Source: Candidatus Saccharimonadota bacterium (GTDB lineage: Bacteria > Patescibacteriota > Saccharimonadia > Saccharimonadales > Saccharimonadaceae). From it: a stretch of DNA of 37,346 nucleotides. The position numbers were made by a program, and so were the translations under genes. The stretch covers positions 1-37,346 of the forward strand of contig JAGCSL010000090.1 in the NCBI GenBank assembly GCA_017964115.1. Reading direction: 5' to 3'. Below are positions 1-20,822 of the stretch, one piece after another. The notes under the pieces were generated by a model. That model saw nothing but the letters and a program-made list of their open reading frames with translations, was not told the DNA's origin and made no database searches. The first letter of the stretch is position 1. Each line of letters starts with the position of its first letter.

Positions 1-1
1 G

Positions 2-1579
2 AAATACATTTTTGTTACAGGGGGCGTGATTTCTGGTGTCGGGAAGGGAATCATGGCAGCAAGTATCGGCGCAATTCTAAAAGCAAAGGGTCTGAAAGTT
101 TCGATGCAGAAATGTGACCCTTATTTTAATGTGGATGCAGGGCTATTAAATCCACGTGAGCACGGAGAATGCTTCGTGACACATGATGGGGCCGAAACTG
201 ATCTCGATTTGGGGCATTATGAGAGGTTCCTCGATGAAGAGATGACGGGCGACTCGATTTGGACATCGGGCAAGTTGTATAAAAAATTGATTGATGCGGA
301 ACGAGCGGGGGAGTTTGGCGGCAAGACAGTACAATTGGTACCTCATGTAACTGGCTTGGTGCAGCAAACTTTCCTCGATAACGCAGCGCATTTTAAATCT
401 GATGTACATATTGTAGAAATCGGTGGTACGATTGGCGATTTGGAAGGTTCACATTTTGTTGAGGCAATTCGTGAATTCGGTTCTAGAGTTGGACGCGAAA
501 ACGTATTGTATGTTCATGTTTGTTATGTGCCATGGCTATCGACTTCACAGGAGTTTAAGACGAAGCCGGCGCAAAATTCATTACGTGATCTGCGTGAATT
601 TGGCATTATTCCAGATATGGTAGTGGCGCGTATGGATGTTGACCGGGTAATTAAGGCACCACAAGTGGCGGCAAAGTTAGCAACCTTCTGTGCAGTTTCG
701 GAAGATGCAGTAGTATTGATGCCGGATGCAAAATCGGTTTATGAAGTGCCTTTGAATGCGGTAAAAGGCGGTGTGTTGGCGCCACTAGAACGCTTTATTG
801 ACCATGGCGATCCAGATATGACGCAATGGGAAGAATTGGTGAAGAAGATAGAATCAAAACCACACAGAGAGACGAAGATTGGTTTAGTGGCGAAATATAT
901 CGATAATACGGATACTTATTTGTCAGTAACAGAGGCCTTGAAGGCGGCCGCCTGGAAAGTGGGAGTGAAGTTAAATACAGTATGGATCGATGCGGAAAAG
1001 GCGACTGAAGAAGATTTTGCAGGCGTGGATGGTATCGTAGTGCCGGGTGGATTTGGAATTCGAGGTATAGAAGGTAAGATTGCGGCTGGTAAATATTGCT
1101 TAGAGCACAATAAACCATATTTGGGACTCTGTCTGGGTCTTCAAACGGCAGTGATTGCGGCAGCACGTAAAGGCGGCGTAAAGGGTGCAAATTCGGAAGA
1201 ATTTGATGCGCCAGCGAATGCGAATGTGGTTTACATTATGGAAGGTCAGAAGGGCAAAGAAAGTACTGGCGGTACCATGCGTTTGGGTGATTACCCAGCA
1301 AAACTGGTGAAAGGAAGCAAAATTGCAGAACTTTACGGAACGGAAAACGTGATAGAACGTCACCGTCACCGCTATGAGGTAAATCAGAAGTTTTTGAAAG
1401 AAATAAAAGAGGGCGGGTTGGTAGTTTCGGGGACTTCGCCAGATGGAAAGTTGGTAGAGTTTGTCGAAGCGCCGAATTGTGACTATTTCGTAGCAACACA
1501 GGCGCACCCAGAGTTTAAGAGTCGACCATATCGGGCGCATCCACTATTTGAAGGATTATTGCGCGCGGCAAGTAAATAA
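2..1579 (+). CDS. pyrG: CTP synthase (5' end cut by window edge; frame runs from nt 2)
   Basis: Frame is open from nt 2 (KYIFVTGGVISGVGKG synthetase N-terminus). C-terminal glutamine amidotransferase motifs GLCLGLQ and HRHRYEVN. TAA stop at 1577-1579. Confidence 0.95.
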   Translation, partial: KYIFVTGGVISGVGKGIMAASIGAILKAKGLKVSMQKCDPYFNVDAGLLNPREHGECFVTHDGAETDLDLGHYERFLDEEMTGDSIWTSGKLYKKLIDAERAGEFGGKTVQLVPHVTGLVQQTFLDNAAHFKSDVHIVEIGGTIGDLEGSHFVEAIREFGSRVGRENVLYVHVCYVPWLSTSQEFKTKPAQNSLRDLREFGIIPDMVVARMDVDRVIKAPQVAAKLATFCAVSEDAVVLMPDAKSVYEVPLNAVKGGVLAPLERFIDHGDPDMTQWEELVKKIESKPHRETKIGLVAKYIDNTDTYLSVTEALKAAAWKVGVKLNTVWIDAEKATEEDFAGVDGIVVPGGFGIRGIEGKIAAGKYCLEHNKPYLGLCLGLQTAVIAAARKGGVKGANSEEFDAPANANVVYIMEGQKGKESTGGTMRLGDYPAKLVKGSKIAELYGTENVIERHRHRYEVNQKFLKEIKEGGLVVSGTSPDGKLVEFVEAPNCDYFVATQAHPEFKSRPYRAHPLFEGLLRAASK

Positions 1580-1599
1580 TTTCTAAAAAAATGAGCATG

Positions 1600-1629
1600 A
1601 AAAAAGGGCGGTCAGTAAACTGGCCGCCC
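1600..1629 (-). terminator. Intrinsic terminator of the 1750-2259 gene (also lies just 3' of pyrG)
   Basis: 10-bp stem GGGCGGTCAG (1606-1615)/CTGGCCGCCC (1620-1629, one G-U) with TAAA loop. The A-run 1600-1605 gives a U-tract on the minus strand only. Confidence 0.7.
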
Positions 1630-1632
1630 TGC

Positions 1633-1743
1633 GCTCTCTCCTCCTTCTGAGAGAGCTAAGCCCCTGGTGGCATCAGGGATGGTCTACTTTTGTCGGCAGA
1701 CCGTCAGGAGGATTACAACGGGTTTGTTAGGCCCGATTGTAAT
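1633..1743 (-). other. Four further stem-loops between the stop codon (1750) and the terminator; structured 3' UTR or small RNA
   Basis: GCTCTCTC(1633-1640)/GAGAGAGC(1649-1656); CCCTG(1662-1666)/CAGGG(1674-1678); GGTCT(1681-1685)/AGACC(1698-1702); ATTACAA+CGGG(1712-1722)/CCCG+a+TTGTAAT(1732-1743). Confidence 0.4.
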
Positions 1744-1749
1744 TTAACG

Positions 1750-2259
1750 TTAGATGGAGGCTGTGGCGTATTCAAAGTCCTCCATTTCGACGTCGTCCTC
1801 ACTGGCGGCTGCCAGCTCCTCGATCTCTTCTTCGAGGGCAGCATTCCGGTGCGGGGCACGAGTCTTATTGGTATGCTTCAGTCGCTCGGCCGCACGCTGG
1901 TTTTCGCCAATCTGGCGGACGATTTCCTGAAGGTGCTTTCTGCCAGTCTGGTCAAGGCCAACATCGTGCAGGCGCTGGATCATTTTGTCGAGTGCTTCCT
2001 GAGCGCGGGCGGTCACCTTGTCCGAATGTTCGGCGCGGCGAGCAGCCTTGATGTAGTCGTTGACGAGACACAGGTTATCGAGGACCATGGCTCTTTCGGT
2101 CAAGCCGCTGTGTTTGGGGTCGAGGCCCCTGGCGGTAAGAGTGCGGCTCAGACAGTTGAGCCGGCGCTTCTCCTCCTTGGGGAGACTTGCCTTGCCGGCG
2201 AGTTCTTTGAATTCGTGAGCAAGCTTGACGGACGCAGGTGCCTTACGTGTTTTGGACAT
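1750..2259 (-). CDS. Hypothetical GC-rich, helical, highly charged protein (169 aa) with acidic C-terminal tail
   Basis: ORF track gives 1750-2265 with a TTG first codon. ATG 2259 is preferred because GGAGG (2272-2268) lies 8 nt upstream. The gene has its own promoter and terminator. No family recognised. Confidence 0.7.
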   Translation of the reverse strand: MSKTRKAPASVKLAHEFKELAGKASLPKEEKRRLNCLSRTLTARGLDPKHSGLTERAMVLDNLCLVNDYIKAARRAEHSDKVTARAQEALDKMIQRLHDVGLDQTGRKHLQEIVRQIGENQRAAERLKHTNKTRAPHRNAALEEEIEELAAASEDDVEMEDFEYATASI

Positions 2260-2389
2260 ACACAATTCCTCCTTTTATGTGAATGTGCGATGCACGGGTG
2301 CATAAAAAGATAAAACTTGGAACTTGGGAAGCTCCTAAAGTTTATCTGTAACTACTTTCACCAAAATACATAGCTCTGTAGCTGTCTAT

Positions 2390-2418
2390 ACTATATCAAA
2401 ATTATTATGTTTTGTCAA
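2390..2418 (-). promoter_or_regulatory. Near-consensus sigma70-type promoter for the 1750-2259 gene
   Basis: Minus strand reads TTGACA (2418-2413) - 17 nt - TGa-TATAGT (-10 at 2395-2390). This predicts a ~125-nt 5' UTR. Confidence 0.6.
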
Positions 2419-2425
2419 GAGTTTA

Positions 2426-2455
2426 TTTGAAACAGGGGTAAAATGATGGTAAAAT
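2426..2455 (+). promoter_or_regulatory. Promoter for argS (extended -10)
   Basis: TTTGAA (2426-2431) - 18 nt - TGg-TAAAAT (2450-2455). A second TAAAAT lies at 2439-2444. Confidence 0.5.
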
Positions 2456-4147
2456 ATGGATATTATGGACAATCTGAAGGAACAAATCAAAGGAGTTATC
2501 AACGATTTATATGGCGTTGATGATGTGACTGTTGATTTTGCGAGCGTGCCGAGCGAAATTGAGGGTGACTATTCGACGAACGTGGCGATGCGTCTTGCGC
2601 GTCAGGCCGGTAAAGCTCCCCGTCAGATTGCCGAAGAAATTATTGAAAAACTAGGAAATAGTGGCTTTGGTTTCTCAATTGCCGGTCCAGGCTTTATTAA
2701 TGTAGTCGTATCTGGAAAATCTCTACAGAGGCAACTCGACGAAGTTTGGTCGGATGATTACGGAAATAACGATTCTGGCAAGGGGCGCTTGGCGATTTCG
2801 GAGTTCCCGAGCACAAATATTGCGAAACCATATTCAGTGGGGCATTTGCGCCCAGGTACGCAAGGTTGGGCGGCCAAAAAGGTGTTGGAAGCGAACGGCT
2901 GGAAGGTCCTGACGGACAATCATTTAGGTGACGTAGGTACGCCTTTTGGGATTTGGGCAGTAGGTTTTATGCGTTCTGGTCTCGATATTGAGGAAGTTAC
3001 GGTTTACGATTTGGGCGATATCTATATTAAGATGAAAGCCGATTTAAAGGCGGAAGAGAAAGTTGGAAAGCACGAATTGGCCGATGAGGTCCAAGAATGG
3101 CTAAAAAAGCTAGAAGCAAAAGATGCCGACGCAGTAAAGCTGTCAAAACATTTTGGCGAAATATCCTTAAAACATACTCATGAGGTGATGGATCGCTTAG
3201 GAATTTCGACAGATATGGAGATGGGGGAGAGCAACTTTGTGGAACTTGGCAAGAAAATGGTCGAAAAATACGCCGATGAGGGGATTTTTGAGCGAAATGA
3301 AGATGGCTCGGTGATTTGTCGCTTGGATGACTATGGAATTGATGTGCCGATGTTAATGCTGAAGAGTAATGGTACGGCCTTATATGCGACGACAGATTTG
3401 GGCTGTTTAACTTATCGCGACGAAAATATCCATCCAGATAAGATTGTGTATGCGGTGGGCGCGGAGCAGAAGTTCTACTTTGAACAGCTCTTTGCGATGG
3501 CAAAAAAGGTAGGAATCAAGTTTGATAATTATCATCTGGTATTCGGGACGATTGACCAGATTTCGCCAGAGGGGAAGCGTGAGAAAATGTCCTCGCGTAA
3601 GGGTGTGGTTTTGATGGAATCACTGCTTGATGACGCCGAAAAGCGGGTACGCGAGAATTTTGGTGCCGATGTAACAGATGAGGATATTGCGAAAATTGCG
3701 GTGGGGGCAATTAAGTTTTCAGATTTTGTAGCAGATCGCAATACGGGGATTTTGTATGATCCAGATAAGATTTTTGCTTTAACTGGTCAATCGGGGCCGT
3801 TTTGTCAGTATGCGTGCGTGAGGATGCGTCGCATTATGGAAAAAAACGCCGATTTTAAGGCGGTAGGCTTTGATGATTATGATTTTGCAGCCGAGAAAGA
3901 AGTTTTGCAAAAATTATTAGAATTTCCAGAGGTAGTTGCGGAAGCTTGTGAAGATTTTCGCATGCACAAAATTGCTGGTTTTGCCTTTGAATTGGCGCAG
4001 GAACTGAACCGATATTACGAGAAGACGCCGATTTCGTCGGCCGCTGATTCTGAGCGTTCAGCGCGTTTATGGCTGATTAAGCGAGCGGATTTCGTGTTAG
4101 CGCGAGCATTGGATTTGTTAGGAATTGAGATTCCAGAGAAGATGTAG
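2456..4147 (+). CDS. argS: Arginine--tRNA ligase
   Basis: 563-aa class I aaRS with an ArgRS-type HIGH variant (PYSVGHLRPG), an N-terminal additional domain and a C-terminal DALR-type anticodon-binding region ending ...EKM. The in-frame ATG at 2465 is an alternative start because the -10 abuts 2456. Confidence 0.93.
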   Translation: MDIMDNLKEQIKGVINDLYGVDDVTVDFASVPSEIEGDYSTNVAMRLARQAGKAPRQIAEEIIEKLGNSGFGFSIAGPGFINVVVSGKSLQRQLDEVWSDDYGNNDSGKGRLAISEFPSTNIAKPYSVGHLRPGTQGWAAKKVLEANGWKVLTDNHLGDVGTPFGIWAVGFMRSGLDIEEVTVYDLGDIYIKMKADLKAEEKVGKHELADEVQEWLKKLEAKDADAVKLSKHFGEISLKHTHEVMDRLGISTDMEMGESNFVELGKKMVEKYADEGIFERNEDGSVICRLDDYGIDVPMLMLKSNGTALYATTDLGCLTYRDENIHPDKIVYAVGAEQKFYFEQLFAMAKKVGIKFDNYHLVFGTIDQISPEGKREKMSSRKGVVLMESLLDDAEKRVRENFGADVTDEDIAKIAVGAIKFSDFVADRNTGILYDPDKIFALTGQSGPFCQYACVRMRRIMEKNADFKAVGFDDYDFAAEKEVLQKLLEFPEVVAEACEDFRMHKIAGFAFELAQELNRYYEKTPISSAADSERSARLWLIKRADFVLARALDLLGIEIPEKM

Positions 4148-4221
4148 ATTTTTTCTAGCTTTGTGAGTGGATATAAGGTGTTATTTTTGGACTAAACGGG
4201 GGCGGAAGCATAAGCGTGCTA

Positions 4222-4250
4222 TTGACTTTTTGATGAATGTGTGCTATAAT
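4222..4250 (+). promoter_or_regulatory. Near-consensus sigma70-type promoter
   Basis: TTGACT (4222-4227) - 17 nt - TGc-TATAAT (-10 at 4245-4250). Confidence 0.65.
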
Positions 4251-4256
4251 CAACAT

Positions 4257-4453
4257 ATTGCGGTTGAAATATGACTGTAAAGCACGTTAAGTGTGATGAA
4301 AATGCTAAGTTTACCTCTTTTATCGGGTTAGCTTCCTGGACTGGTCACGGACGAGTTTAGAAAGCTAGCCCGAGGAACCGCAAGGATTCTAAGGGAATGG
4401 CGGAGTCAAGATTCGCACCCTTGGAGAAGGTGCGGGAAACGGAGGTAGATAAT
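4257..4453 (+). promoter_or_regulatory. Long structured 5' leader (candidate cis-regulatory RNA or sRNA) upstream of the 4454 gene
   Basis: Closing helix TTGCGGTT(4258-4265)/AACCGCAA(4376-4383). 12-bp helix TCGGGTTAGCTT(4323-4334)/AAGCTAGCCCGA(4362-4373). Hairpin CGCACC(4414-4419)/GGTGCG(4429-4434) sits 6 nt before the SD GGAGG (4441-4445). Confidence 0.45.
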
Positions 4454-4942
4454 ATGACTCACTATCCTAATATCGCAGCAGCACAGATTGCTGACGCAAC
4501 CAGAAGCATCGTCAAAAGAGGAGGCCATGTCGTTGATCTGGAAGACCACGATATGCGTCGTCTCGTAGAGATCCTGGAAGATCATCACCAGAGTTCAGAG
4601 CTGTGTCACATGCACGACCTGCCGACTACGGCTATCGATGAACTGGCAGCAGAAGAACTCGCGGAGCTTACCGGTAAACCGAACTATCTGGCGCATTTCG
4701 CTCGTGTTCGTGCGGAGGAATCTGAGTGCCTGAGGGCGCTGACGGATATCCTCGGAGCCAACACTGAGACGGAAAGGCAGCAGATCATCGCCTTCTACAG
4801 CGAAGGGGCATACCCGAGCTTGAAGCAGCTGATACAGACCGCAACATTTGCGGCAGCAGTTGCAGGCGATTATCAGACGGCCTACGAGCTTGTCCAGGGT
4901 GTTCGTGCTACGCCGGAGCTGCACTCGCTGTTTGTTGCATAA
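4454..4942 (+). CDS. Hypothetical GC-rich acidic/helical protein (162 aa)
   Basis: ORF track gives 4397-4942. ATG 4454 is preferred because GGAGG lies 8 nt upstream, and ATG 4397 falls inside the predicted leader. No family recognised. Confidence 0.65.
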   Translation: MTHYPNIAAAQIADATRSIVKRGGHVVDLEDHDMRRLVEILEDHHQSSELCHMHDLPTTAIDELAAEELAELTGKPNYLAHFARVRAEESECLRALTDILGANTETERQQIIAFYSEGAYPSLKQLIQTATFAAAVAGDYQTAYELVQGVRATPELHSLFVA

Positions 4943-4977
4943 TTGCTCATACGCATTTAGCCACCACACAAAAACCA

Positions 4978-5014
4978 GGGTCCACATCGCAAGGTGTGGG
5001 CCCGCTTCCATTTT
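4978..5014 (+). terminator. Stem-loop 3' of the 4454-4942 gene
   Basis: 9-bp stem GGGTCCACA(4978-4986)/TGTGGGCCC(4995-5003, one G-U). The T-run comes only at 5011-5014. A second, weaker hairpin plus T-run lies at 5033-5054. Confidence 0.45.
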
Positions 5015-5063
5015 ATGGGGGGACATCAAAAAACGACCGCGAGGCCGTATTTTTAAAGCAAAG

Positions 5064-5100
5064 AAAAAAGCCCCCAGTGATCATGTAATCGGTGGGGGCT
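5064..5100 (-). terminator. Intrinsic terminator of the 5111-5761 gene
   Basis: 8-bp stem AGCCCCCA(5069-5076)/TGGGGGCT(5093-5100). The upstream A-run (5064-5069) is the U-tract on the minus strand. Confidence 0.65.
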
Positions 5101-5110
5101 TATAAAGTCA

Positions 5111-5761
5111 TCAGGAAAGTTGAACTGGGGTGCGCAGTGCGCGCTGAAGCATGCGCTCATGGCGGCCGGCAATTGCGTAGATAAGGATCGCCTCAGCCTC
5201 GTTCGAGGGATATTTCCCAAAGCGGCTATCGTCTGGGATGGTGTCCACAGCTTTTTCCTTCAAGACTTTGTCCTTTGCGCCACTCACGGAGTTGAGCGCC
5301 GCAAAAGAGTACATGCAGTATGCGAGCATTTGCAGAGAAATATCGCGGTCGGCGTGGCTGTTATACCAGCCGCCGATGATAGTGCCGCGTTCGCAGGTGC
5401 ATGCGATTAGTGAAATGTTGTCGGTTGCCTGTTCTACGAGACACTTGTTGGTGTGTCTCGCGCGAGCGGGTGCGGACTTGGCGAAAGCATTGAGTCGCTC
5501 ATGCAGCTCTTTGCCTGCCGTGTCGTTAGCTACGTCGGGGCTCAAGTTGGAGTTATCCCCCTCGAGCATCCCGTAGAAGAGTGACCTGACACGACCTTTT
5601 TTGTCAACTAGTCTGAAGTCGTACAGATCGGTACTGTGGGCGTGTTTCTTTACATAGAAACTTTCCACAACGAAGTTCTCCAGAATCGCATACCCACAGA
5701 TAGAGGGGATTTCATTTATTCCTCTGATCCTAGAGAACTCGAACACGTTTGCTTTTGTCAC
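5111..5761 (-). CDS. Hypothetical GC-rich protein (216 aa), GTG start
   Basis: ORF track. GTG at 5761 is preceded by a G-rich SD-like run (gaagggggg). The gene has its own promoter and terminator. No family recognised. Confidence 0.65.
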   Translation of the reverse strand: MTKANVFEFSRIRGINEIPSICGYAILENFVVESFYVKKHAHSTDLYDFRLVDKKGRVRSLFYGMLEGDNSNLSPDVANDTAGKELHERLNAFAKSAPARARHTNKCLVEQATDNISLIACTCERGTIIGGWYNSHADRDISLQMLAYCMYSFAALNSVSGAKDKVLKEKAVDTIPDDSRFGKYPSNEAEAILIYAIAGRHERMLQRALRTPVQLS

Positions 5762-5852
5762 GGAGCATCAACCCCCCTTCTTCCTTTCCTTGACTTTTTT
5801 AACGAACGTTGTTTATAGATACAAAAACTTTAGCGGATTACCGCGTAAGTAA

Positions 5853-5881
5853 ATTTTAGCATAGTTTGTTTAATTTGTCAA
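5853..5881 (-). promoter_or_regulatory. Near-consensus promoter for the 5111-5761 gene
   Basis: Minus strand reads TTGACA (5881-5876) - 17 nt - TGc-TAAAAT (-10 at 5858-5853). This predicts a ~85-nt 5' UTR. Confidence 0.6.
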
Positions 5882-5903
5882 TGCTTATTAGGTGTGATAT
5901 AGT
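5875..5903 (+). promoter_or_regulatory. Promoter for mscL
   Basis: TTGTCA (5875-5880) - 17 nt - TGa-TATAGT (5898-5903). SD aagagga lies upstream of ATG 5929. Confidence 0.6.
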
Positions 5904-5928
5904 TAAACTAAGTTAAAAGAGGAATAGT

Positions 5929-6303
5929 ATGGCTGAAGAAAAATCAAAGCACAAAGAATTAGCAAAAGCTGGCCTTGGTAAAGTAAAAGGCGCGAGCAGT
6001 GGATTTATGACTTTTATTAAAGAGCAGAACGTAGTTGGTCTCGCTGTGGGTTTAGTACTTGGTGCCGCCGCTAGTGCATTGGTTAACTCTTTGATTAACA
6101 ATGTAATTATGCCACCTCTTGGCTTCCTATTGGGTAGCGCTGAAGGTATTCGTGGCCTAGCTTTTACGATGGGCACTACTCCATCTGGTGAAGTTGCCGT
6201 GTTGCATTATGGCGAATTTATCAACGATTTAATTAACTTCTTGGTCTTAGCCTTGGTTATTTACTTTGTCGTGAAGGCTTTGAAGCTTGATATCAAGAAA
6301 TAA
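5929..6303 (+). CDS. mscL: Large-conductance mechanosensitive channel
   Basis: 124 aa. TM1 signature FIKEQNVVGLAVGLVLGAA, then NNVIMPPLG and a second TM helix. Lys-rich N-terminal extension of ~25 aa. Confidence 0.9.
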   Translation: MAEEKSKHKELAKAGLGKVKGASSGFMTFIKEQNVVGLAVGLVLGAAASALVNSLINNVIMPPLGFLLGSAEGIRGLAFTMGTTPSGEVAVLHYGEFINDLINFLVLALVIYFVVKALKLDIKK

Positions 6304-6306
6304 TCG

Positions 6307-6843
6307 ATGACGAAAGCTGCGGAAAAAGCTACCTTGTTGTGGGTAGATTTGGAGATGACGGGATTGTCGCCAGAAGTGGATAAGATTCTCGAGGTGGCGG
6401 CAATTGCGACGGACTGGGACTTGAATGAGCTTGATACTTTTACGGCGGTCGTAAAATGCGATGAGAAACTGATGCGAGAGCGCATGGTGGGTGAGTTCTG
6501 GGAGAAGAATAAGGAATCTTTTGATGCTTTGATGGCGCAAAATGCCGACGGGGCGGCGCCAGAGATGGTTGAAAAAGAGCTATTAAAATTCTTGAAAAAG
6601 AATTTTGGCGACGAGGTTTATTTGGCGGGAAATTCAATTCATCAGGATCGCAAGTTTATCGAGCGTGAATGGCCAAAATTGAATGCAAAATTACATTACC
6701 GGATGCTAGATGTGAGTGCGTGGAAAATATATTTCGAAAATGCCTTGCATCGGAGTTTTGCGAAGCCGGAAAATCATCGCGCATTAGACGATATTCGCGG
6801 AAGTATTGAGGAGTTGAAATGGTATCGGAAGATGATATCGTAA
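6307..6843 (+). CDS. orn: Oligoribonuclease (DEDDh 3'-5' exonuclease)
   Basis: LLWVDLEMTGL (Exo I), LAGNSIHQDRKFI (Exo II), HRALDDIRGSIEEL (Exo III). Confidence 0.88.
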   Translation: MTKAAEKATLLWVDLEMTGLSPEVDKILEVAAIATDWDLNELDTFTAVVKCDEKLMRERMVGEFWEKNKESFDALMAQNADGAAPEMVEKELLKFLKKNFGDEVYLAGNSIHQDRKFIEREWPKLNAKLHYRMLDVSAWKIYFENALHRSFAKPENHRALDDIRGSIEELKWYRKMIS

Positions 6844-7139
6844 AATATGCCTTGGGACTAGCGGATGTTTCGGAACGACGCGATGGTGCGCTGCGGATTT
6901 TTACGCGGGGCGAAAAGATATTTTTAGTTATCGAGACCGGCACGGATCCGCTAAGGATAGAAACGCGTTGCGACCGTAGACTAAGCAAAACTTTGCAAGA
7001 GCAGTACGAAAGCGTAATGGAAAGTCGTGCGTTGGGACGCAATGGAATTGAAATTATCTGTAGTGGGCAATTGACAGACGATGAAGTTGTAGATTTAGTG
7101 CGACACAGTTACGAGATTTCTGGACCAGAAGCAGAATAA
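6819..7139 (+). CDS. MmcQ/YjbR-family-like small protein
   Basis: 106 aa. The pattern F..GEKIF......DPLRIETRCD......L...YESV and the C-terminal D.EV..LV..SY resemble YjbR. Overlaps the orn 3' end by 25 nt. Confidence 0.5.
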   Translation: MVSEDDIVKYALGLADVSERRDGALRIFTRGEKIFLVIETGTDPLRIETRCDRRLSKTLQEQYESVMESRALGRNGIEIICSGQLTDDEVVDLVRHSYEISGPEAE

Positions 7140-7170
7140 AAATATCTCCCCGATGGGGAGATATTTTTTT
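7137..7170. terminator. Bidirectional intrinsic terminator between convergent genes
   Basis: 10-bp stem ATATCTCCCC(7142-7151)/GGGGAGATAT(7155-7164) with GAT loop, flanked by an A-run and a T-run. Confidence 0.8.
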
Positions 7171-7180
7171 GTGGTCTGAA

Positions 7181-7798
7181 TTAAAGTGTGTCGTTGAAGT
7201 CGCGGAAGTTTTCGTAGAGGCCTTCAAGATCGCCGAGTGATTGGTTGAGAATATTTTTGAGGGCATCGTTATCGGTCTTGTTGAGCACTTGTTTTTCTAG
7301 GCTGACAATTTGCATGATGCGATTAGCGGTTTGACTGGAGTAATATTCGTCCATTTGGCCGCTTAGAGAAGCGCGCTCGAGCTGCCCCATGTAAGTGTTG
7401 AAGGTCTTAGTCTCCTCGTTTTTGACGTCTTTGGAAATATTATTCTTCTCGACTTTAAGTTTGCCAAGCAAGGCAGTGTAATCTTTAGTGGTGCCAAGAA
7501 GGGAAGTTTCGAGGCGGTTAGCGTGGCTAGCAAGAGTAGAAGAACTGATGAAATCGGCATATTTGCGGTATGGGCCTTTACTGTCGCACATTTGAGAAAT
7601 ACGTAAATATAGGCGCTCATAAGATTGCGTGAGTTTTGCATTGGTATTGCTGACCATAACGCCTACGATAATGATCGTAATAAGCATAATTACGCCGGCA
7701 ATTAACAGCTTTATCATGACCGGGCTAAGAAGCGGCTCGCTGTTAGAAGTATTTTTGCCTTTAACGGCGATCTGATCAAGATAAGATTGGTTGTCCAT
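7181..7798 (-). CDS. Hypothetical single-pass membrane protein (205 aa)
   Basis: ORF track gives 7181-7816. ATG 7798 is preferred because it lies exactly 6 nt after a TGcTATAAT -10. TM helix LLSPVMIKLLIAGVIMLITIIIVGVMV followed by a coiled/helical ectodomain. Confidence 0.7.
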   Translation of the reverse strand: MDNQSYLDQIAVKGKNTSNSEPLLSPVMIKLLIAGVIMLITIIIVGVMVSNTNAKLTQSYERLYLRISQMCDSKGPYRKYADFISSSTLASHANRLETSLLGTTKDYTALLGKLKVEKNNISKDVKNEETKTFNTYMGQLERASLSGQMDEYYSSQTANRIMQIVSLEKQVLNKTDNDALKNILNQSLGDLEGLYENFRDFNDTL

Positions 7799-7804
7799 AA
7801 AAAC

Positions 7805-7813
7805 ATTATAGCA
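7805..7813 (-). promoter_or_regulatory. Extended -10 giving a leaderless transcript for the 7181-7798 gene
   Basis: Minus strand reads TGc-TATAAT (7813-7805), then 6 nt, then ATG (7798). Confidence 0.55.
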
Positions 7814-7886
7814 CAAGCGTAATTAATCAAAATACTAAAAGATGTGGTCGATGGTAGCATATGAGGTCGCATATCTGTTAGCGAGA

Positions 7887-7895
7887 TGGTATAAT
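7887..7895 (+). promoter_or_regulatory. Extended -10 giving a leaderless dnaG transcript
   Basis: TGG-TATAAT (7887-7895), then 6 nt, then ATG 7902. Confidence 0.55.
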
Positions 7896-7901
7896 TTTGG
7901 T

Positions 7902-9524
7902 ATGGAGGATGCCAAAGAGGAGATTCGGGCGAGGTTAGCAGTCGAAGATGTAGTTGGGCAATACATCGAGCTGAAGCGTGCCGGACGAAATTTCAAGGGG
8001 CATTCACCTTGGGGAACAGACAGAACGCCGAGTTTTATGGTTTCGCCAGATAAGGGGATTTGGCATGATTTTTCGAGCAATAAAGGGGGCGACATTTTTA
8101 CTTTCGTGATGGAGATGGAAGGGTGTACTTTTCGCGAGGCGCTAGAGAAGTTGGCACAACAGGCGGGGGTGGAACTAAAGCGCTATTCGTCTGACGACCG
8201 CAAACAGGCGGCGCGAAAGCAGCGGATTCGTGATTGTTTAGAGTTGGCGACAAAATATTTCCAATTTTGCCTGACCAAAAATAAAGCCGTGATGCAATAT
8301 GTGTTTTATAAGCGGAATTTGAATAAGAAAACGGTAGAAAATTTTCGGATTGGTTATGCGCCAAAATCAGGGCGAGCACTGGTGAGTTTTTTGCAAAAGC
8401 GTGGTTTTACGGCGCAAGAAATGGAAGATGCCGGGTTAGTGAATCGTTTTGGTGGAGATTTATTTAAAGGACGAATGACGGTACCTTTAATGGATGTGTC
8501 GGGAAACGTAATTGGTTTTACGGGGCGCATTATTGAGCAGGATGATAATTCGCCGAAATATCTAAATACGCCAGAAACTCTACTCTATAACAAAGGACGA
8601 CATATTTTTGGCTTGTCACAGGCGAAAGATGCAATTCGACGGTCGGATTTTGTGGTAGTGGTAGAGGGGAATATGGATGTGATTTCGTCACATCAGGCCG
8701 GCGTGTGTCAGGCAGTGGCGACGGCAGGTACGGCGATGACTGAGATGCATTTGAAAAGCTTTGCGCGGCTTACGAAAGATATTCGGTTGGCCTATGATGG
8801 CGACGAGGCGGGAGTGCGAGCAGCGGAACGCGCAATTTCGATGGCGTCGAAATTTGGGATTTATTTGTCGGTAATTGATGATTACCATGGCTGTAAGGAT
8901 GCAGACGAATTGATTCAGAAAGATCCGAAGTTGTGGCAAGACGCGGTTGAGAATTATCGGCCGGCACTAGAATGGTTGCTAGAGAAATATGTCGCGAAAT
9001 ATAATTTGAAGACCGAAAAAGGTTTCCAGGAATATACAACCGAGGCGAAGCGCCTGATTGACCAGATTGACCCGGCAGATACGGTACTGCGCGAAAAATA
9101 CGAACGAATCGTGTCGGAGCGATTAGGAATCTCACTGGAGGCGTTTAGGGCGAAAAAAGTGGCTCAGCCAGAGAAGAAGAAACTAAAAAAGACTAATGTT
9201 GTTAAAAACACAACAGTTGTAAGTAGAGCGGAAAAGAATTTGGCGGCTTTGGCGCAATCGGGAAAAGTGGATTTGGGTGATTTTGAGGTGCGCGAATTTG
9301 ACATAGACGAACTAGCCTTCATCTTTGATGAGCGTTACGGTAAGTGGAATGAACCTGATTTACAGCGTGAAGCAAAAGAGTTAATGCAAAAAGTATCTAC
9401 GGAGCGACAAGAAGCGGAGCGGAAAGAGCTCGAAGAGCAGATTCGGGCAGCCGAAAAAGTTGGGGACGAAAAACTTGAAGAAGAATTAATGCTGAAATTA
9501 AGCAAAATATTGCGTCAAAAATAG
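7902..9524 (+). CDS. dnaG: DNA primase
   Basis: N-terminal primase zinc-ribbon-like region (RTPSFMVSPDKGIWHDF..GGD), RNA polymerase core, TOPRIM (VVVVEGNMDVIS ... YDGDEAG) and a charged C-terminal helical domain. ORF track start 7842 was rejected in favour of ATG 7902. Confidence 0.9.
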   Translation: MEDAKEEIRARLAVEDVVGQYIELKRAGRNFKGHSPWGTDRTPSFMVSPDKGIWHDFSSNKGGDIFTFVMEMEGCTFREALEKLAQQAGVELKRYSSDDRKQAARKQRIRDCLELATKYFQFCLTKNKAVMQYVFYKRNLNKKTVENFRIGYAPKSGRALVSFLQKRGFTAQEMEDAGLVNRFGGDLFKGRMTVPLMDVSGNVIGFTGRIIEQDDNSPKYLNTPETLLYNKGRHIFGLSQAKDAIRRSDFVVVVEGNMDVISSHQAGVCQAVATAGTAMTEMHLKSFARLTKDIRLAYDGDEAGVRAAERAISMASKFGIYLSVIDDYHGCKDADELIQKDPKLWQDAVENYRPALEWLLEKYVAKYNLKTEKGFQEYTTEAKRLIDQIDPADTVLREKYERIVSERLGISLEAFRAKKVAQPEKKKLKKTNVVKNTTVVSRAEKNLAALAQSGKVDLGDFEVREFDIDELAFIFDERYGKWNEPDLQREAKELMQKVSTERQEAERKELEEQIRAAEKVGDEKLEEELMLKLSKILRQK

Positions 9525-9686
9525 AACTGTGATATAAAAAATATTAAATCAGCTGGAATAGCGGGCTTATTTTGTTAGTAGCCCTTCCAGGAGAAAAATA
9601 AGATTGGTCAAGAATATACAAAAACTTTCAAACATAAAAACTTGCAAAAGCATGGGGCTTTTGTGTGCTAATTAATAAGGAAAGAC

Positions 9687-10658
9687 ATGGACGAAGACGA
9701 TAAAGATTTGCGCCTAGATGATGAACTCGACGAGCCTACACTTGATGAAATGGGCGAAGAGGGTGAAGAGGATCTCAATATTGACCTAGAAGCAGCTACC
9801 TATGATGAGGTAGCAGACGACTCTGTGAAATTATACTTACGAGAAATTGGTAAGATTCCACTTTTGACGGCTGAAGAAGAATTTGAACTAGCACAGAAGA
9901 TTATTAATGGGACCGAAAAAGAGAAGAAAAAAGCCAAGGATAAAATGGCTGAGTCGAATATGCGTTTAGTAGTATCAATTGCAAAGCGCTATTCTGGTCG
10001 CGGCTTGGATTTCTTGGATTTGATTCAGGAAGGTAATACTGGCCTTTTGCGTGCGGTAGAGAAGTTTGATCCAGATAAAGGCTTTAAATTCTCGACTTAT
10101 GCAACTTGGTGGATTCGCCAGGCAATTACGCGTGCGATTGCAGACCAGGCACGTACGATTCGTATTCCGGTACACATGGTGGAGACGATTAATAAGGTTC
10201 TTCGTACACAGCGCCGTTTAACGCAGGAATTGAACCGTGAGCCATCAACTGAAGAAATTGCAAAGGCGATGGGCATGGAACCAGAGAAGATTGAGTACGT
10301 GATGAAGATTAAGCAAGATATTGCTTCCTTGGATGCTTCGGTTGGTCGCGATGGGGAAGATGACGATTCTTCATTGGGTGATTTTATCGAGGATGAAGAT
10401 CGCGTTTCGCCAGAGGATTCGGCGGCAACGCAACTTTTGAAAGAACAAATTGCGACTATTTTGCAAACTTTGACAGATCGTGAACAAAAGATTATTAAGA
10501 TGCGTTTTGGTATTGGTGGCGGTAAAAGTCATACTTTGGAAGAAGTAGGCGCAGAATTTTCAGTAACGCGCGAACGTATTCGTCAGATTGAAGCGAAGGC
10601 TTTGACGAAATTGCGCAAGAATAAAGATACGAAGAAATTGCACGAGTATTTAAAATAG
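9687..10658 (+). CDS. rpoD: Primary RNA polymerase sigma factor (sigma70 family, compact)
   Basis: Acidic N-terminus. Region 1.2 [14 protein letters not shown], region 2 [32 protein letters not shown], region 4.2 [24 protein letters not shown]. dnaG-rpoD synteny. Confidence 0.93.
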
Positions 10659-10669
10659 CAAAAATAGAT

Positions 10670-10698
10670 TTGATTTTTGCATTAAACATAAGTACAAT
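10670..10698 (+). promoter_or_regulatory. Promoter for pilT-pilC (leaderless)
   Basis: TTGATT (10670-10675) - 17 nt - TACAAT (10693-10698), then 6 nt, then ATG 10705. Confidence 0.55.
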
Positions 10699-10704
10699 AG
10701 TGTT

Positions 10705-11859
10705 ATGGAACAAAGTGGGCAGGTGAATAATTCCGCTCCGATGGATACAAATCCACCGATGAGCAGTACTCCAATATCTTCAGTAACGGTAAGTAATGCT
10801 GAGGTGCGCATCGAGAGTTTACTCGAGGAATGTGTACGCACAAAAGCAAGCGATTTACATTTGCAAGTCGGTTTGCCACCTATTTTGCGTATTGATGGTG
10901 CCTTGCAGCCGGTTTCTGGTTACGGTAACCTGGATGAGCCAACAGTTGAGCGTCTCGTATTTTCCACGCTTGAAGAAGACCAGAAACAGATTCTAATTAA
11001 GGACAAAGAGTTTGACTACTCGTTCTCTTTTGGTGATTTAGGCCGCTTCCGTGTAAACGCGTTCCATGAGAAGGGTAATTTGGCGGGCGCTTTCCGCTTG
11101 ATTCCGAATGAAATTCAGTCAATAAATGAGCTCGGTATGCCAACGGTAGTATCCAGCTTCGCAGATTTTCCGCGTGGTTTAGTATTGGTAACTGGTCCGA
11201 CTGGTTCTGGTAAATCTACCACTTTGGCGGCACTAGTCGATAAGATCAATCGTGAAAAATCTGTTCATATTATTACGATTGAGGATCCAATTGAGTTTAC
11301 GCACAAGTCTTTGCGTTCAGTAGTAGTACAGCGCGAGGTGCACTATGATACCTATTCGTTCTCAGCGGCTTTGCGTTCGGCACTGCGCGAGGACCCGGAC
11401 GTAGTTTTGATTGGTGAGATGCGCGACCTTGAGACGATTTCGGCGGCGATTACAATTGCGGAAACTGGTCACTTGGTATTTGCGACTTTGCACACCAACT
11501 CGGCTTCGCAGAGTATTGACCGTATGATTGACGTGTTCCCGCCACATCAGCAGCCACAGGTGCGTTCGCAGTTGTCGAATATTTTGCAGGCAATTTGCGC
11601 GCAGCGCTTGGTGCCAGCAATTGGTGGTGGCCGCGTGGTAGCAGCAGAAATTTTGATAGCAAATCCAGCCGTTCGTTCGGTGATTCGCGAAGGCAAAACA
11701 CATCAGCTTGATACGATTATTCAGACAGGTGCTGATCAAGGTATGCAGACGATGGACCGCACTTTAGTGAAATTAATTCAGACGGGTGTAATTACTTACG
11801 ATAATGCACGCGAATTTGCAGTTGACTTACAAGAATTTGAAAGGTTAGCTAGAGGATAA
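10705..11859 (+). CDS. pilT: Type IV pilus retraction ATPase PilT family
   Basis: ASDLHLQVGLPPILRIDG, Walker A GPTGSGKSTT, GEMRD, His-box TGHLVFATLHTNSA. At 384 aa it fits PilT size, not PilB. Ser/Pro-rich N-terminal extension of ~35 aa. Confidence 0.85.
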   Translation: MEQSGQVNNSAPMDTNPPMSSTPISSVTVSNAEVRIESLLEECVRTKASDLHLQVGLPPILRIDGALQPVSGYGNLDEPTVERLVFSTLEEDQKQILIKDKEFDYSFSFGDLGRFRVNAFHEKGNLAGAFRLIPNEIQSINELGMPTVVSSFADFPRGLVLVTGPTGSGKSTTLAALVDKINREKSVHIITIEDPIEFTHKSLRSVVVQREVHYDTYSFSAALRSALREDPDVVLIGEMRDLETISAAITIAETGHLVFATLHTNSASQSIDRMIDVFPPHQQPQVRSQLSNILQAICAQRLVPAIGGGRVVAAEILIANPAVRSVIREGKTHQLDTIIQTGADQGMQTMDRTLVKLIQTGVITYDNAREFAVDLQEFERLARG

Positions 11860-11863
11860 TTGA

Positions 11864-13196: not shown

Positions 13197-13814
13197 ATGA
13201 CAACAAAAAATAAAAAAGGCTTTACGATCATCGAGGTAGTCTTGGTGCTTGCAATTGCAGGTCTTATCTTCTTGATGGTGTTCATTGCGCTTCCTGCTTT
13301 GCAGCGTTCGCAACGCAACACTCAGCGTGAGGATGACTTGGCTCGTATCATTACTGGCGTTAACAACTACCAGACAAATAACAACGGTAAGGTGCCATTT
13401 AGGGAGGGTGCTACTGGCACTGAATTAGCGACATTTGTCCAACGCTATATTGACAAGAACTGTAAAACCGTTAAAACTGTGACAACTACTAATGGTAGCG
13501 GCGATAGCGCAACTACGCAATCTTGGACTACTTTCGAATCTTGTGGTGATAGCAACGAGTTTAGAGATCCACAAGGAAATATCTACAAAATTGCTAGTGG
13601 CGGTAAGGCTGTAACTACTACTGGCTCAGGCGACTCAACTTCGACTACTGCTGGTAAAGATGTTGCAAACCTAGTTGCTGAAGAAAGCTTCTTAGGCTTC
13701 TATAATGCTACCTGTGGTGATGAAGGTCATGCCAACGGTGGTACTGGCGATCGTGATGTTGCTGTCTTCATGAAGCTTGAAGGTGGTGCTATTGCTTGTA
13801 ACGATAACCACTAA
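13197..13814 (+). CDS. Type IV (class III signal) pilin
   Basis: MTTKNKKG|FTIIEVVLVLAIAGLIF: Gly-1/Phe+1/Glu+5 prepilin cleavage/methylation motif. Four Cys (probably two disulfides). Monocistronic, with its own promoter and terminator. Confidence 0.9.
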   Translation: MTTKNKKGFTIIEVVLVLAIAGLIFLMVFIALPALQRSQRNTQREDDLARIITGVNNYQTNNNGKVPFREGATGTELATFVQRYIDKNCKTVKTVTTTNGSGDSATTQSWTTFESCGDSNEFRDPQGNIYKIASGGKAVTTTGSGDSTSTTAGKDVANLVAEESFLGFYNATCGDEGHANGGTGDRDVAVFMKLEGGAIACNDNH

Positions 13815-20626: not shown

Positions 20627-20702
20627 AATTACCTTTATTTTAGCATAAACGGAATAGAAAAAGTACATGTTTAGGCCGAGAGAGCGCTCTGCTGATGCGA
20701 AG

Positions 20703-20725
20703 AATAAAAAATAACCCGATGGGTT
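20703..20725 (-). terminator. Terminator after tRNA-Gly
   Basis: ATAACCC(20709-20715)/GGGTTAT(20719-20725). The plus-strand A-run 20704-20708 is the U-tract on the minus strand. Confidence 0.65.
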
Positions 20726-20736
20726 ATGTTTTATGC

Positions 20737-20811
20737 TTTGGTGCGGGTGGAGAGAGTCGAACTCTCGTCTCATCCTTGGGAAGGATACATAATAGCCGTT
20801 ATACGACACCC
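20737..20811 (-). tRNA. tRNA-Gly (anticodon CCC), CCA encoded
   Basis: The reverse complement folds as acceptor GCGGGTG/CACCCGC, anticodon loop TTCCCAA, T-arm GAGAG-TTCGACT-CTCTC, 3' ACCA. Confidence 0.85.
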
Positions 20812-20822
20812 GCGCTAGGTAT

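Follow-up and report, generated by a model that had tools for sequence, protein, structure and literature searches.

Three genes located around argS in the window (the whole stretch of 37,346 nucleotides that was analysed) are probably fast-diverging, self-expressed accessory genes of a single Saccharibacteria family, two of which would constitute a module gated by a structured leader RNA. The genes were labelled A (1750-2259, minus strand, 169 amino acids), B (4454-4942, plus strand, 162 amino acids, with a start backed by the N-termini of its orthologues and by a Shine-Dalgarno (SD) sequence) and C (5111-5761, minus strand, 216 amino acids, GTG start). The genomes of Saccharibacteria, like those of other Patescibacteria, are tiny and much of their gene content is uncharacterised; A, B and C are genes likely to be relevant to the lineage-specific lifestyle. 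The compositional anomaly found here corresponded to lineage-restricted, strongly signalled, fast-diverging genes at fixed slots and not to foreign DNA, a result that corrects the tempting mis-annotation of these genes as a horizontally acquired island.

Results

Composition and Codon Usage of A, B, and C

The preliminary description had judged by eye that the three genes were GC-richer than their surroundings, and the computed values bore this out. GC content and GC3 were 0.58 and 0.68 in A, 0.54 and 0.56 in B, and 0.52 and 0.62 in C, in a 37-kb window with a GC content of 0.428 whose remaining 37 genes ranged between 0.37 and 0.47 in GC and between 0.36 and 0.52 in GC3, none of them reaching A, B or C. 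Codon usage was deviant as well, since the synonymous-codon likelihoods of A, B and C under the codon usage of the window were the lowest three of all genes. The elevated GC3 stemmed from C-ending codons and from CTC, CTG and ATC: NNC was preferred over NNT at a proportion of 0.65 in A, B and C versus 0.32, ATC usage was 0.72 versus 0.21, and TTA was absent from the three genes. A C-specific enrichment was observed at the four-fold sites of A (C 0.59, G 0.08), and those of B were not enriched at all.

Long ORFs had also been reported on the opposite strand. The one at 1690-2313 (plus strand) exists, but that given as 5120-5576 was really two ORFs, 5120-5410 and 5238-5576. Gene B also has a shadow ORF, at 4595-5029 (minus strand). 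These ORFs are present because A, B and C avoid TTA, CTA and TCA, the complements of which are stop codons. It is extremely improbable that the GC-rich blocks encode structured non-coding RNAs and that their ORFs are compositional artefacts. Such a reading would account for GC-rich islands in an AT-rich genome with strong promoters and terminators, for long ORFs on both strands and for the truly structured leader of B; it is opposed by the codon-position pattern of the three genes (GC1 > GC2 < GC3), by amino-acid motifs that are conserved and indels whose lengths are multiples of three, by dN/dS values well below 1 with saturated synonymous sites and conserved proteins, by the absence of any Rfam match over the three ORFs, and by the codon avoidance that accounts for the shadow ORFs.

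Distribution, Synteny, and Origin

The order pyrG-A-argS-B-C-mscL was kept in approximately 25-38 related Saccharibacteria species, and an identical layout was found in contigs of 60, 68 and 57 kb (L001, L004 and L007, among the loci showing A, B and C). When 77 GTDB species loci were compared, the A family comprised 32 syntenic members (by iterative HMM search), the B family 25 (by single-linkage clustering) and the C family 38, and 16 homologues were recorded for C. The slots were empty in loci L026, L044 and L063, and the B/C slot was empty in L016, L017, L019 and L020. The genes would hold fixed slots between housekeeping genes, A between pyrG and argS and the pair B and C between argS and mscL, which are kept in many species and empty in some. 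The A family was restricted to Saccharibacteria and always lay between pyrG and argS on the opposite strand, B was always convergent to C, and C was always divergent to the adjoining mscL. B and C co-occurred, in convergent orientation, in 34 of 35 loci.

Searches with A, B and C against 5.8 billion clustered proteins returned Saccharibacteria-type matches only. An exhaustive search with C retrieved only 28 (small) clusters among 1.84 billion protein representatives, and no relatives of C were found in the viral contigs of IMG/VR. The family holding the three genes is labelled Nanosyncoccaceae in some records, and comes from rumen, gut and oral samples.

The horizontal acquisition from a high-GC (actinobacterial) donor proposed in the preliminary description was contradicted by these results. 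A recent transfer of this kind, for instance from an actinobacterial host and with the incoming genes brought under strong native promoters, is very improbable. Composition and codon usage strongly deviant in the window, in genes lacking any known family match, would be expected from it; however, A, B and C had unchanged syntenic positions in dozens of relatives, all the homologues found came from Saccharibacteria-type contigs, and promoters and leaders were conserved together with the genes. Nor were mobility genes, tRNA junctions or repeats found at their borders: the nearest integrase-family gene (xerC-like, 14677-15618) was 9 kb away and tRNAs lay beyond 17 kb. Furthermore, the GC3 excess was common to the orthologues and independent of the backbone GC. 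The GC3 of A exceeded that of the backbone by +0.156, and was the higher of the two in 27 of 28 species; the corresponding excess was +0.17 in B and +0.06 in C. There was no correlation between the excess and the GC3 of the backbone (r = -0.07 in A and 0.21 in C).

As judged from the orthologous sequences, the high GC3 appears to be an old, intrinsic property of these genes, decoupled from the GC of the backbone, and we infer that it is not the signature of a foreign donor. Its most likely causes would be selection linked to expression or to the stability of the mRNA, spread of the cassettes from genome to genome, and a GC bias that comes with recombination, alone or in combination. The pilin gene of the window (13197-13814) had a GC3 of 0.38, which speaks weakly against expression and GC3 being linked in general.

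Promoters, Leaders, and Terminators

A, B and C would each be expressed as an independent monocistronic unit, with an extended -10 promoter and a strong SD, a leader that has a hairpin at its 5' end, and terminators that are structured or in tandem. The near-consensus promoters listed in the preliminary description were found exactly where it had placed them and with the same sequences: TTGACA-17-TGaTATAGT at 2418-2390 on the minus strand for A (TTGACA 2418-2413, TG-TATAGT 2398-2390), TTGACT-17-TGcTATAAT at 4222-4250 on the plus strand for B, and TTGACA-17-TGcTAAAAT at 5881-5853 on the minus strand for C (TTGACA 5881-5876, TG-TAAAAT 5861-5853). These were the sole 11/12 matches with an extended -10 TG across the 37-kb window. 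The promoter of mscL (5875-5903, plus strand) overlapped that of C back-to-back. A promoter with at least 10/12 matches preceded 22 of 31 A orthologues, one of the B-type architecture was located directly downstream of argS in the 30 loci examined (30/30), and a comparable promoter was present upstream of nearly all C orthologues.

The long 5' UTRs that had been predicted could be read from the sequence, with leaders of ~123 nt for A (promoter and leader region 2260-2418, minus strand, GGAGG SD), ~197 nt for B and ~85 nt for C (promoter and leader region 5762-5881, minus strand), each having a GGAGG or G-rich SD. The leaders of A, B and C may have a grammar in common, which would consist of the strong extended -10 promoter, a 5'-end hairpin and a GYAC-N-TTWA box. 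The claim that neighbouring genes are leaderless was borne out only in part: two genes start 9-10 nt after a -10 (23676 and 19590), and mscL had a 26-nt leader with an SD. The start of argS is probably the ATG at 2465.

An own hairpin terminator was also found for each gene. That of A (GGGCGGCCAG..CUGACCGCCC followed by U6, ~1631-1600) was the last of five hairpins in a 3' UTR (1585-1749, minus strand) that folded with an MFE of -60.8 kcal/mol (z = -4.64, with 0 of 200 shuffles as good). The convergent terminator region between B and C (4943-5110) contained three hairpins, namely the B terminator at 4978-5003 and a tandem pair serving C at ~5101-5052 and 5048-5023 (z = -5.11 for the folding of the C-strand pair). 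To judge from the consensus matches, the combined signals of the three units predict abundant and stable mRNAs.

The Structured Leader RNA of B

The leader of B (4257-4453, plus strand) had been described only as long; its length was right, and what had been missed was that it is a conserved structured RNA. It comprised a 5'-end hairpin, a conserved long hairpin, more hairpins and a CCUCU tract (4314-4318), and its folding had an MFE of -79.5 kcal/mol (z = -6.99). The core hairpin (4318-4378, plus strand, 18-19 bp) was conserved and covarying, with compensatory double changes in 16 of its 18 pairs. In the alignment 95.6% of the cells were paired versus 81% in shuffles, none of 500 shuffles reaching 95.6%, and the pairing was only 28-60% in slid controls. 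This core is a long near-perfect helix, capped in most species by an apical loop rich in purines (GGGGAG).

A covariance model of the hairpin detected exactly one copy per locus and a single match in the whole window. The copies always lay downstream of the post-argS promoter and upstream of the gene in the B slot, and loci without the B/C module gave no match to the model. The nucleotide sequence of the leader was conserved where the B proteins were only 25-50% identical; the leader is thus more conserved than B itself. No match to Rfam (4227 families) was found over 1500-6000 at the gathering threshold or at E <= 1, nor over the leaders of four other species. The hairpin appears to be a conserved RNA element that had not been described before.

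The CCUCU tract was predicted to pair with the GGAGG SD of B, a pairing kept in 9 of 10 close relatives. The pairing probability of the SD was above 0.9 in the clade of the window and 0.2-1.0 across other species, and its sequestration was clear in about half of 31 species. The structured leader is predicted to gate the synthesis of B, with the closing helix sequestering the SD. Rather than a pocket for a ligand, the conserved core helix resembles a site recognised by a protein or by RNase III, or else a decoy of the SD.

Divergence, Selection, and Exchange of the Genes

Flanking proteins were mostly 90-98% identical between species, the lineage-specific neighbours h106 and h205 being 72-93% identical, and in the same comparisons the identities were 43-59% for A, 29-53% for B and 52-60% for C. 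The fastest-evolving gene was B, whose orthologues reached only these 29-53% where ArgS was 90-91% identical. At equal ArgS identity the identity of the families varied widely (0.34-0.91 for C at an ArgS identity of 0.90-0.95). Within one species, A, B and C were as conserved as their flanks (97-100%). The dN/dS of the three genes was 0.07-0.42 in every informative pair (0.14-0.42 for A and 0.15-0.33 for B) and never exceeded 1, which indicates that all three genuinely code for protein and that purifying selection on them is relaxed. The proteins would accordingly diverge several-fold faster than their neighbours under this relaxed regime.

A different pattern was obtained when the window was compared with L086 and L087, two short Logan contigs from a single sample (SRR17035161) for which a chimeric assembly is possible. 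The flanks had a nucleotide identity of 74-82% and a dS of 1.0-2.5, versus 95% for the B leader, 89% for B, 98% for the spacer and 95.5% for C, with a dS of 0.13-0.29 in the cassette. This mosaic suggests a transfer of the B-C cassette from one species to another, which would have occurred by recombination in the conserved flanks. Among the species-representative pairs, none had a family identity above that of ArgS. The view of B and C as a two-gene module, previously put forward as a possibility, fits both the co-occurrence and the apparent joint exchange, and B-C appears to be a conserved module.

The elevated GC3 might also be a side effect of gene conversion that favours GC and acts at slots prone to recombination, instead of a consequence of selection for expression, a reading that is doubtful although it deserves some weight. 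Mosaic identity marks recombination exactly at the borders of the cassette, divergence is heterogeneous at equal backbone distance and GC3 is decoupled from the backbone, as gene conversion would have it; but the C-specific four-fold sites of A and the unenriched ones of B do not correspond to the symmetric gain of G+C that it should produce, and there was no excess of diversity within species.

Predicted Proteins and Possible Functions

In agreement with the preliminary description, A, B and C belonged to no recognisable family, with no significant Pfam, NCBIfam, PHROG or PADLOC match, and no transmembrane helix or signal peptide was apparent (maximum Kyte-Doolittle value over 19 residues <= 1.19). 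PDB, Pfam and PADLOC gave no functional support for any of them; the PADLOC-DB defence profiles yielded only partial matches (E = 0.006-0.027) with no system context. The other possibility raised at the outset, that the genes encode lineage-specific, strongly expressed cytoplasmic proteins, is consistent with the sequence data.

Protein A was all-helical and charged, with an acidic C-terminal tail, and its AF2 model was helical with residues 10-60 at a pLDDT of ~90. No Foldseek, PDB profile or Pfam match was obtained (best Foldseek E = 0.21). The pattern L..L.A.GL.P....L..RA is SAP-like by eye, but a SAP/HeH/Rho_N assignment found no support in these same search results.

Protein B was acidic and helical. 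Of 33 proteins of the B slot, 18 had Ala as the last residue and 26 had A, G or V. Protein C was of the alpha/beta type, with the invariant motifs GTIIGGWYNS..D.D..QMLA and IPxDxRFxK. In its AF2 model (mean pLDDT 63.5, with N- and C-terminal thirds of low confidence) a core at residues 40-155 had a pLDDT of 75-93 and the topology a-b-b-a-b-b-b-a. Foldseek returned weak matches of this model to longin, roadblock and YeeU folds; the best had E = 9.5e-4 with TM 0.28/0.38 and was the only one with E < 1e-3, and TM-scores were mostly below 0.5, the highest being 0.54 (MglC). No PDB sequence-profile match and no Pfam match, Robl_LC7 included, was found for C. The core of C is possibly roadblock/longin-like; its motifs GGWYNS and IPxDxRF are not known as signatures of roadblock proteins. 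As a working guess, and the least certain step of our proposal, B-C may act inside the cell as a module of the regulatory or conflict type, with C as a roadblock/longin-like interactor and B as its small acidic partner, and A may be a separate helical factor, apart from B-C.

It is unlikely that B-C, possibly with A, is specifically an anti-phage defence or toxin-antitoxin-like conflict module, in which B would be a labile neutraliser and C an effector or sensor. Fast divergence, patchy presence and inter-species exchange would then reflect an arms race. The several-fold faster divergence relative to the flanks, the presence or absence across species, the apparent exchange of the cassette and the tight co-occurrence of B and C argue for this reading, as do the small hydrophobic C-terminal residues (-LSA) of many B orthologues, which resemble a C-terminal degron, and a weak resemblance of C to the YeeU/CbeA antitoxin fold (Foldseek E = 1.3e-2). 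Nevertheless, no PADLOC, Pfam or PHROG match was found, B (plus strand) and C (minus strand) are convergent with separate promoters and do not form an operon, dN/dS never exceeded 1 and the genes were not hypervariable within species, they do not lie in a defence island, and the fold of C appears regulatory and not enzymatic or toxic.

It is less plausible still, and indeed quite improbable, that the three proteins are effectors exported to the bacterial host independently of a signal peptide, for instance by type IV secretion, with the interaction of host and epibiont driving their evolution. They are lineage-specific, fast-evolving and predicted to be strongly expressed, and the disordered, acidic C-terminus of A resembles the Glu-rich C-terminal signals of type IV effectors; in addition, the related contig L001 has a weak T4SS_pilin Pfam match ~4 kb past pyrG. 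However, signal peptides, transmembrane segments and secretion-related domains were absent from A, B and C, no linkage to secretion genes was found in the window, and C has a compact, roadblock-like predicted fold of a kind typical of cytoplasmic regulators.

Discussion

We know of very few regulatory RNAs from Patescibacteria, and the covarying hairpin of the B leader is a candidate new cis-regulatory RNA in the phylum. The exchange of B-C, if true, would be evidence for gene flow by homologous recombination among uncultivated episymbionts. In a broader reading, which taken as a whole has a rather low probability, the B leader would be a new Saccharibacteria regulatory RNA gating a horizontally circulating B-C conflict module within a regulon shared by A, B and C. 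The leader could in that case be a riboswitch or a sensing element for a protein or RNase, B-C would serve the conflict of the epibiont with phages or with its bacterial host, and the common leader grammar would define a small co-regulated regulon of high expression.

The leader of B, conserved, multi-hairpin and strongly covarying, is comparable to the 5' UTRs that sequester the SD, such as translational riboswitches and the leaders of ribosomal-protein genes, and its closing helix is predicted to pair a CU-rich tract with the SD. It differs from the known ones in having no Rfam match and in that SD sequestration was not evident in every species.

The model topology of C is like that of Roadblock/LC7-longin (MglB-like) proteins, the best matches being TRAPP sedlin/longin subunits, MglB, MglC and LC7. 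In contrast to these, C had no Pfam Robl_LC7 match and its TM-scores were at most 0.54, below 0.5 save for MglC; no MglA-type GTPase gene adjoins it.

B and C also recall type II toxin-antitoxin pairs, since they are small, adjacent, co-occurring, fast-evolving and apparently exchanged between genomes. Unlike such pairs, they are convergent, each with its own promoter and terminator, and no toxin or antitoxin domain was detected; in structure, C resembles the YeeU/CbeA antitoxin fold weakly (Foldseek E only 1.3e-2).

Finally, A, B and C are similar to phage "morons" and other autonomous cassettes in carrying their own strong promoter and terminator, in their atypical composition, and in being inserted between conserved genes with a presence that varies among genomes. 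Unlike morons, they are part of a chromosomal housekeeping backbone, with no phage genes nearby and no IMG/VR relatives, and are kept at the same positions in dozens of species together with their promoters and leaders.

Results

The three GC-rich genes of the pyrG-argS-mscL region, A (1750-2259, - strand), B (4454-4942, + strand) and C (5111-5761, - strand), were first examined for their coding status, since in an AT-rich genome a GC-rich island with a strong promoter may also be a structured RNA. No match was obtained in 1500-6000 with Rfam, either at the gathering threshold or at E ≤ 1, and the only Rfam matches in the window were four tRNAs, all located elsewhere. The ORFs displayed the codon-position pattern GC1 > GC2 < GC3, amino-acid motifs were kept across the orthologues of all three, and dN/dS was 0.07-0.42 wherever dS was measurable, so that the RNA-gene reading of the ORFs was ruled out. 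Positive selection was not seen at these dN/dS values (≤ 0.42). Hence, A, B and C are protein-coding genes. C is annotated in the public entries P0049, P0050 and P0053 as a 185-aa protein with an internal Met start; the Shine-Dalgarno sequence (SD), together with the 30 N-terminal residues, which are kept in orthologues, favours a putative 216-aa product starting at GTG 5761. Elsewhere in the window, the longest ORF (19631-20809, - strand) overlaps tRNA-Gly (20739-20813, - strand) by about 70 nt, and its true start must therefore lie further downstream.

The preliminary description had judged by eye that these genes were richer in GC than their surroundings, and the computed composition agreed. 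The mean GC of the window was 42.8%, and sliding windows reached 55-59% over 1650-2250 and 51-56% over 4350-5700. The GC and GC3 values were 0.58 and 0.68 for A, 0.54 and 0.56 for B, and 0.52 and 0.62 for C, against 0.37-0.47 and 0.36-0.52 for the 37 other ORFs of the window, and the three lowest synonymous-codon likelihoods, scored on the window's own usage, were those of A, B and C. In these genes NNC was used over NNT at 0.65 versus 0.32, the ATC fraction of the Ile codons was 0.72 versus 0.21 in the background, and Leu was encoded by CTC and CTG instead of TTA and TTG. The long opposite-strand shadow ORFs that had been noted were also present, because A, B and C hardly use TTA, CTA and TCA, the codons complementary to stop codons. 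The GC skew of the + strand, strongly positive (0.2-0.37) nearly throughout positions 1-12000, fell to 0.03-0.13, and briefly below zero, precisely over the three genes, B included though it lies on the + strand.

From this composition the preliminary description had preferred an import from a high-GC donor, such as an actinobacterial host. For C, protein searches retrieved 16 relatives, for A a single one, and for B nothing beyond near-identical copies; wherever a source was named or the contig could be recovered, the relative was from Saccharibacteria, and none carried a Pfam domain. The 57-68 kb contigs containing C relatives had a layout identical to that of the window: pyrG, an opposite-strand gene of 161-162 aa, argS, a gene of 132-164 aa, a gene of 214-221 aa, and mscL-orn. 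An ArgS scan of the GTDB species representatives yielded 77 loci, nearly all from Saccharibacteria of rumen, gut and other habitats, some of them labelled Nanosyncoccaceae. Iterative HMM searches of the ORFs in these slots gave 32 members of the A family and 38 of the C family, constant in position and orientation. Single-linkage clustering of the ORFs between argS and C (B-slot genes) placed B in a family of 25; for the B-slot proteins outside this main cluster, no link to B was found with hhalign (probabilities ≤ 11%). B and C were convergent and occurred together in 34 of 35 complete loci. Among 1.84 billion representatives, an exhaustive C profile search identified no more than 28 clusters, each of about 200 aa, and a scan of IMG/VR viral contigs with the same profile found no relatives.

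The GC3 excess over the backbone was common to the orthologues (A +0.156, in 27 of 28 species; B +0.17; C +0.06) and did not track backbone GC3, which varied between 0.40 and 0.59 across species (A, r = -0.07; C, r = 0.21). The property therefore belongs to the genes themselves and is old. These data point to lineage-restricted families held in synteny rather than recent imports, and the high-GC foreign origin was rejected, syntenic orthologues across the lineage being the result that the preliminary description had itself named as refuting it. That statement had envisaged orthologues of a known family; the synteny was found, and the orthologues proved to be as devoid of a known family as the window's genes. 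Its secondary ideas, among them lineage-specific proteins and a convergent two-gene module, were supported.

Genes are gained and lost in one slot independently of the others. They were empty in three loci (L026, L044 and L063), where pyrG, argS and mscL abut, and four others (L016, L017, L019 and L020) had neither B nor C. In two of the latter the pyrG-argS slot was enlarged and contained two tandem A paralogues (L016, 1686-3264; L017, 1667-3178), and the argS-mscL gap was 51 nt.

The families diverge much faster than their neighbours. Compared with three relatives whose PyrG, ArgS, MscL, Orn, DnaG and RpoD share 89-98% identity with those of the window, protein identity was 43-59% for A, 29-53% for B and 52-60% for C, and 72-93% for the nearby hypothetical genes h106 and h205. 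Across species pairs, family identity correlated weakly with ArgS identity (r = 0.43-0.48), with a wide spread at equal backbone distance (C 0.34-0.91 at ArgS 0.90-0.95). Within one species (L088, L097 and L100; 97-99.8% nucleotide identity), A, B and C were as conserved as their flanks and hypervariability was not seen, so the divergence is not a population-level hypervariability. The "hypervariation" described in Gracilibacteria affects a repeat locus and is no parallel case (PMC6851277).

The opposite pattern, a mosaic of identity, was observed between window positions 2143-7793 and two contigs of SRR17035161, L086 (1-2775) and L087 (1-2818). The nucleotide identity was 74-82% in argS, mscL, orn, h106 and h205 (dS 1.0-2.5 for argS, mscL, orn and h106), and rose to 95% in the B leader (4257-4453, + strand), 89% in B (dS 0.29), 98% in the B-C spacer and 95.5% in C (dS 0.13). 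The switch points coincided with the B and C promoters. A chimeric assembly could also give such a mosaic, and L086 and L087 are indeed short Logan contigs. The simplest reading, suggested by the identity pattern, is that the whole B-C cassette moved between species by recombination in conserved flanks.

If such cassettes circulate among genomes of differing GC, this would be another way to uncouple composition from the backbone. The four-fold sites of A were rich in C (0.59) and poor in G (0.08), an asymmetry more easily reconciled with selection on codons or mRNA than with a symmetric, GC-biased conversion; those of B showed no shift whatever. The GC3 of the pilin gene of the window was only 0.38.

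The three near-consensus promoters proposed for A, B and C were recovered exactly as described, and they were the only 11/12 matches with an extended -10 TG in the whole window. The promoter TTGAC[AT]-17-TGnTAnAAT was found upstream of nearly all A and C orthologues and of all B-slot genes, and the orthologue leaders carried a hairpin at the 5' end and a strong SD at the 3' end. With these predicted signals conserved, the portrayal of each gene as an autonomous, strongly signalled cassette is correct and extends to the orthologues. Each gene also had the hairpin terminator attributed to it. The 3' UTR of A (1585-1749, - strand) is unusually long, about 165-168 nt, and contains five hairpins, the canonical terminator being the last (z = -4.6); B is followed by a hairpin at 4978-5003, and C by a tandem pair on the - strand (z = -5.1).

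The contrast drawn with leaderless housekeeping neighbours stood only in part: two genes start 9-10 nt past a -10, argS probably at ATG 2465, but mscL is preceded by a 26-nt leader that carries an SD. In the argS promoter (2427-2465) the -10 ends at 2455 and directly abuts the first ATG (2456), so the in-frame ATG 2465 (Met4) is the likelier, leaderless start. Distant ArgS orthologues align only from residue 3-4 on, in agreement with this start. The promoters of C (- strand) and mscL (+ strand) stand back to back at 5853-5903 with overlapping -35 hexamers (TTGACA, 5881-5876, and TTGTCA, 5875-5880), and they may be rivals for RNA polymerase.

A box G[TC]AC-N-TT[AT]A was found in the leaders of A (2260-2383, - strand), B and C (5762-5846, - strand) and of their orthologues, as in GCACGTTAAG (B), GCACATTCA (A) and AACGTTCGTTAA (C). 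Where shuffles lead one to expect about 1-2 occurrences, the observed counts, inflated by relatedness, were 6 of 22 leaders for A, 10 of 29 for B and 14 of 36 for C. This box may serve the three families as a common operator, or mark an RNase site or a translation signal.

The leader of B, of 197 nt, was more conserved than the protein, its nucleotide sequence being kept where the B proteins were only 25-50% identical. RNAalifold analysis of 31 species identified an 18-bp hairpin at 4318-4378 (+ strand) with compensatory double changes in 16 of the 18 pairs. Paired cells amounted to 95.6%, against 81% in column shuffles, none of 500 shuffles reaching this value, and to 28-60% when the partners were slid by one to three columns. 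A covariance model of the hairpin, which also matched loci outside its training set, placed it once at each locus, in about 45 species, and in every case upstream of the B-slot ORF, even where the B-slot protein has no detectable kinship to B; the 37-kb window had a single copy, and loci without the B-C module gave no match. Two further copies in the same context came from a metagenome pattern scan. The leader of the window folded at -79.5 kcal/mol (z = -7.0), and a CCUCU tract at 4314-4318 was predicted to pair with the SD; this pairing was retained by 9 of 10 close relatives and is predicted for about half of the full species set. The apical loop is purine-rich (GGGGAG) in most species and is replaced by an extended stem in the clade of the window. 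Rfam searches, including the leaders of four other species, returned nothing relevant. The B leader is read as a new cis-regulatory element that would gate B translation; it might respond to a metabolite, to RNase III or to a protein, A, B and C among the candidates.

As anticipated, the proteins belonged to no recognised family, with only sub-threshold noise in Pfam, NCBIfam, PHROGs and PADLOC, and had no hydrophobic segment corresponding to a TM helix or signal peptide. PDB sequence-profile searches with the A, B and C alignments gave nothing below E = 0.03. The model of C had a confident core (residues 40-155, pLDDT 75-93) with the topology a-b-b-a-b-b-b-a, and the motifs GTIIGGWYNS..D.D..QMLA and IPxDxRFxK were invariant. 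Foldseek returned weak matches to longin/roadblock proteins (TRAPP sedlin, MglB, MglC and LC7), to LuxR-type ligand-binding domains and to YeeU (best E 9.5e-4, TM-scores ≤ 0.54), and nothing below 1e-3 among the BFVD viral structures. A, modelled from two sequences only, was helical throughout, a confidently predicted N-terminal region of three helices being accompanied by a basic stretch and by an acidic tail that is disordered. A SAP/HeH identity considered for A was dropped, with no Pfam or PDB-profile support and a best Foldseek E of 0.21 against the PDB. B is acidic and helical, and in many orthologues the C-terminal residues are small and hydrophobic, most commonly -LSA; its matches to colicin immunity proteins (E about 1) were set aside as noise. 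It is possible, though rather doubtful, that B and C form a two-protein module acting inside the cell in regulation or conflict and that A is an independent helical factor.

Discussion

The region thus contains three uncharacterised, lineage-specific and fast-diverging families with conserved high-expression signals, together with a possible exchange of cassettes between species and a well-supported new RNA structure. No description of A, B, C or the leader RNA was found in the literature searched on Saccharibacteria/Nanosyncoccaceae.

When known systems were considered, membership in TA, defence and HGT-island classes failed in each case on at least one of the defining features tested. C may share the roadblock/longin fold, as its predicted structure suggests. 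The B leader is predicted to work like the SD-sequestering riboregulators, but it belongs to no Rfam family. Finally, the A, B and C cassettes resemble phage morons in being promoter-gene-terminator units of deviant composition, and differ from them in being chromosomal, syntenic and old.
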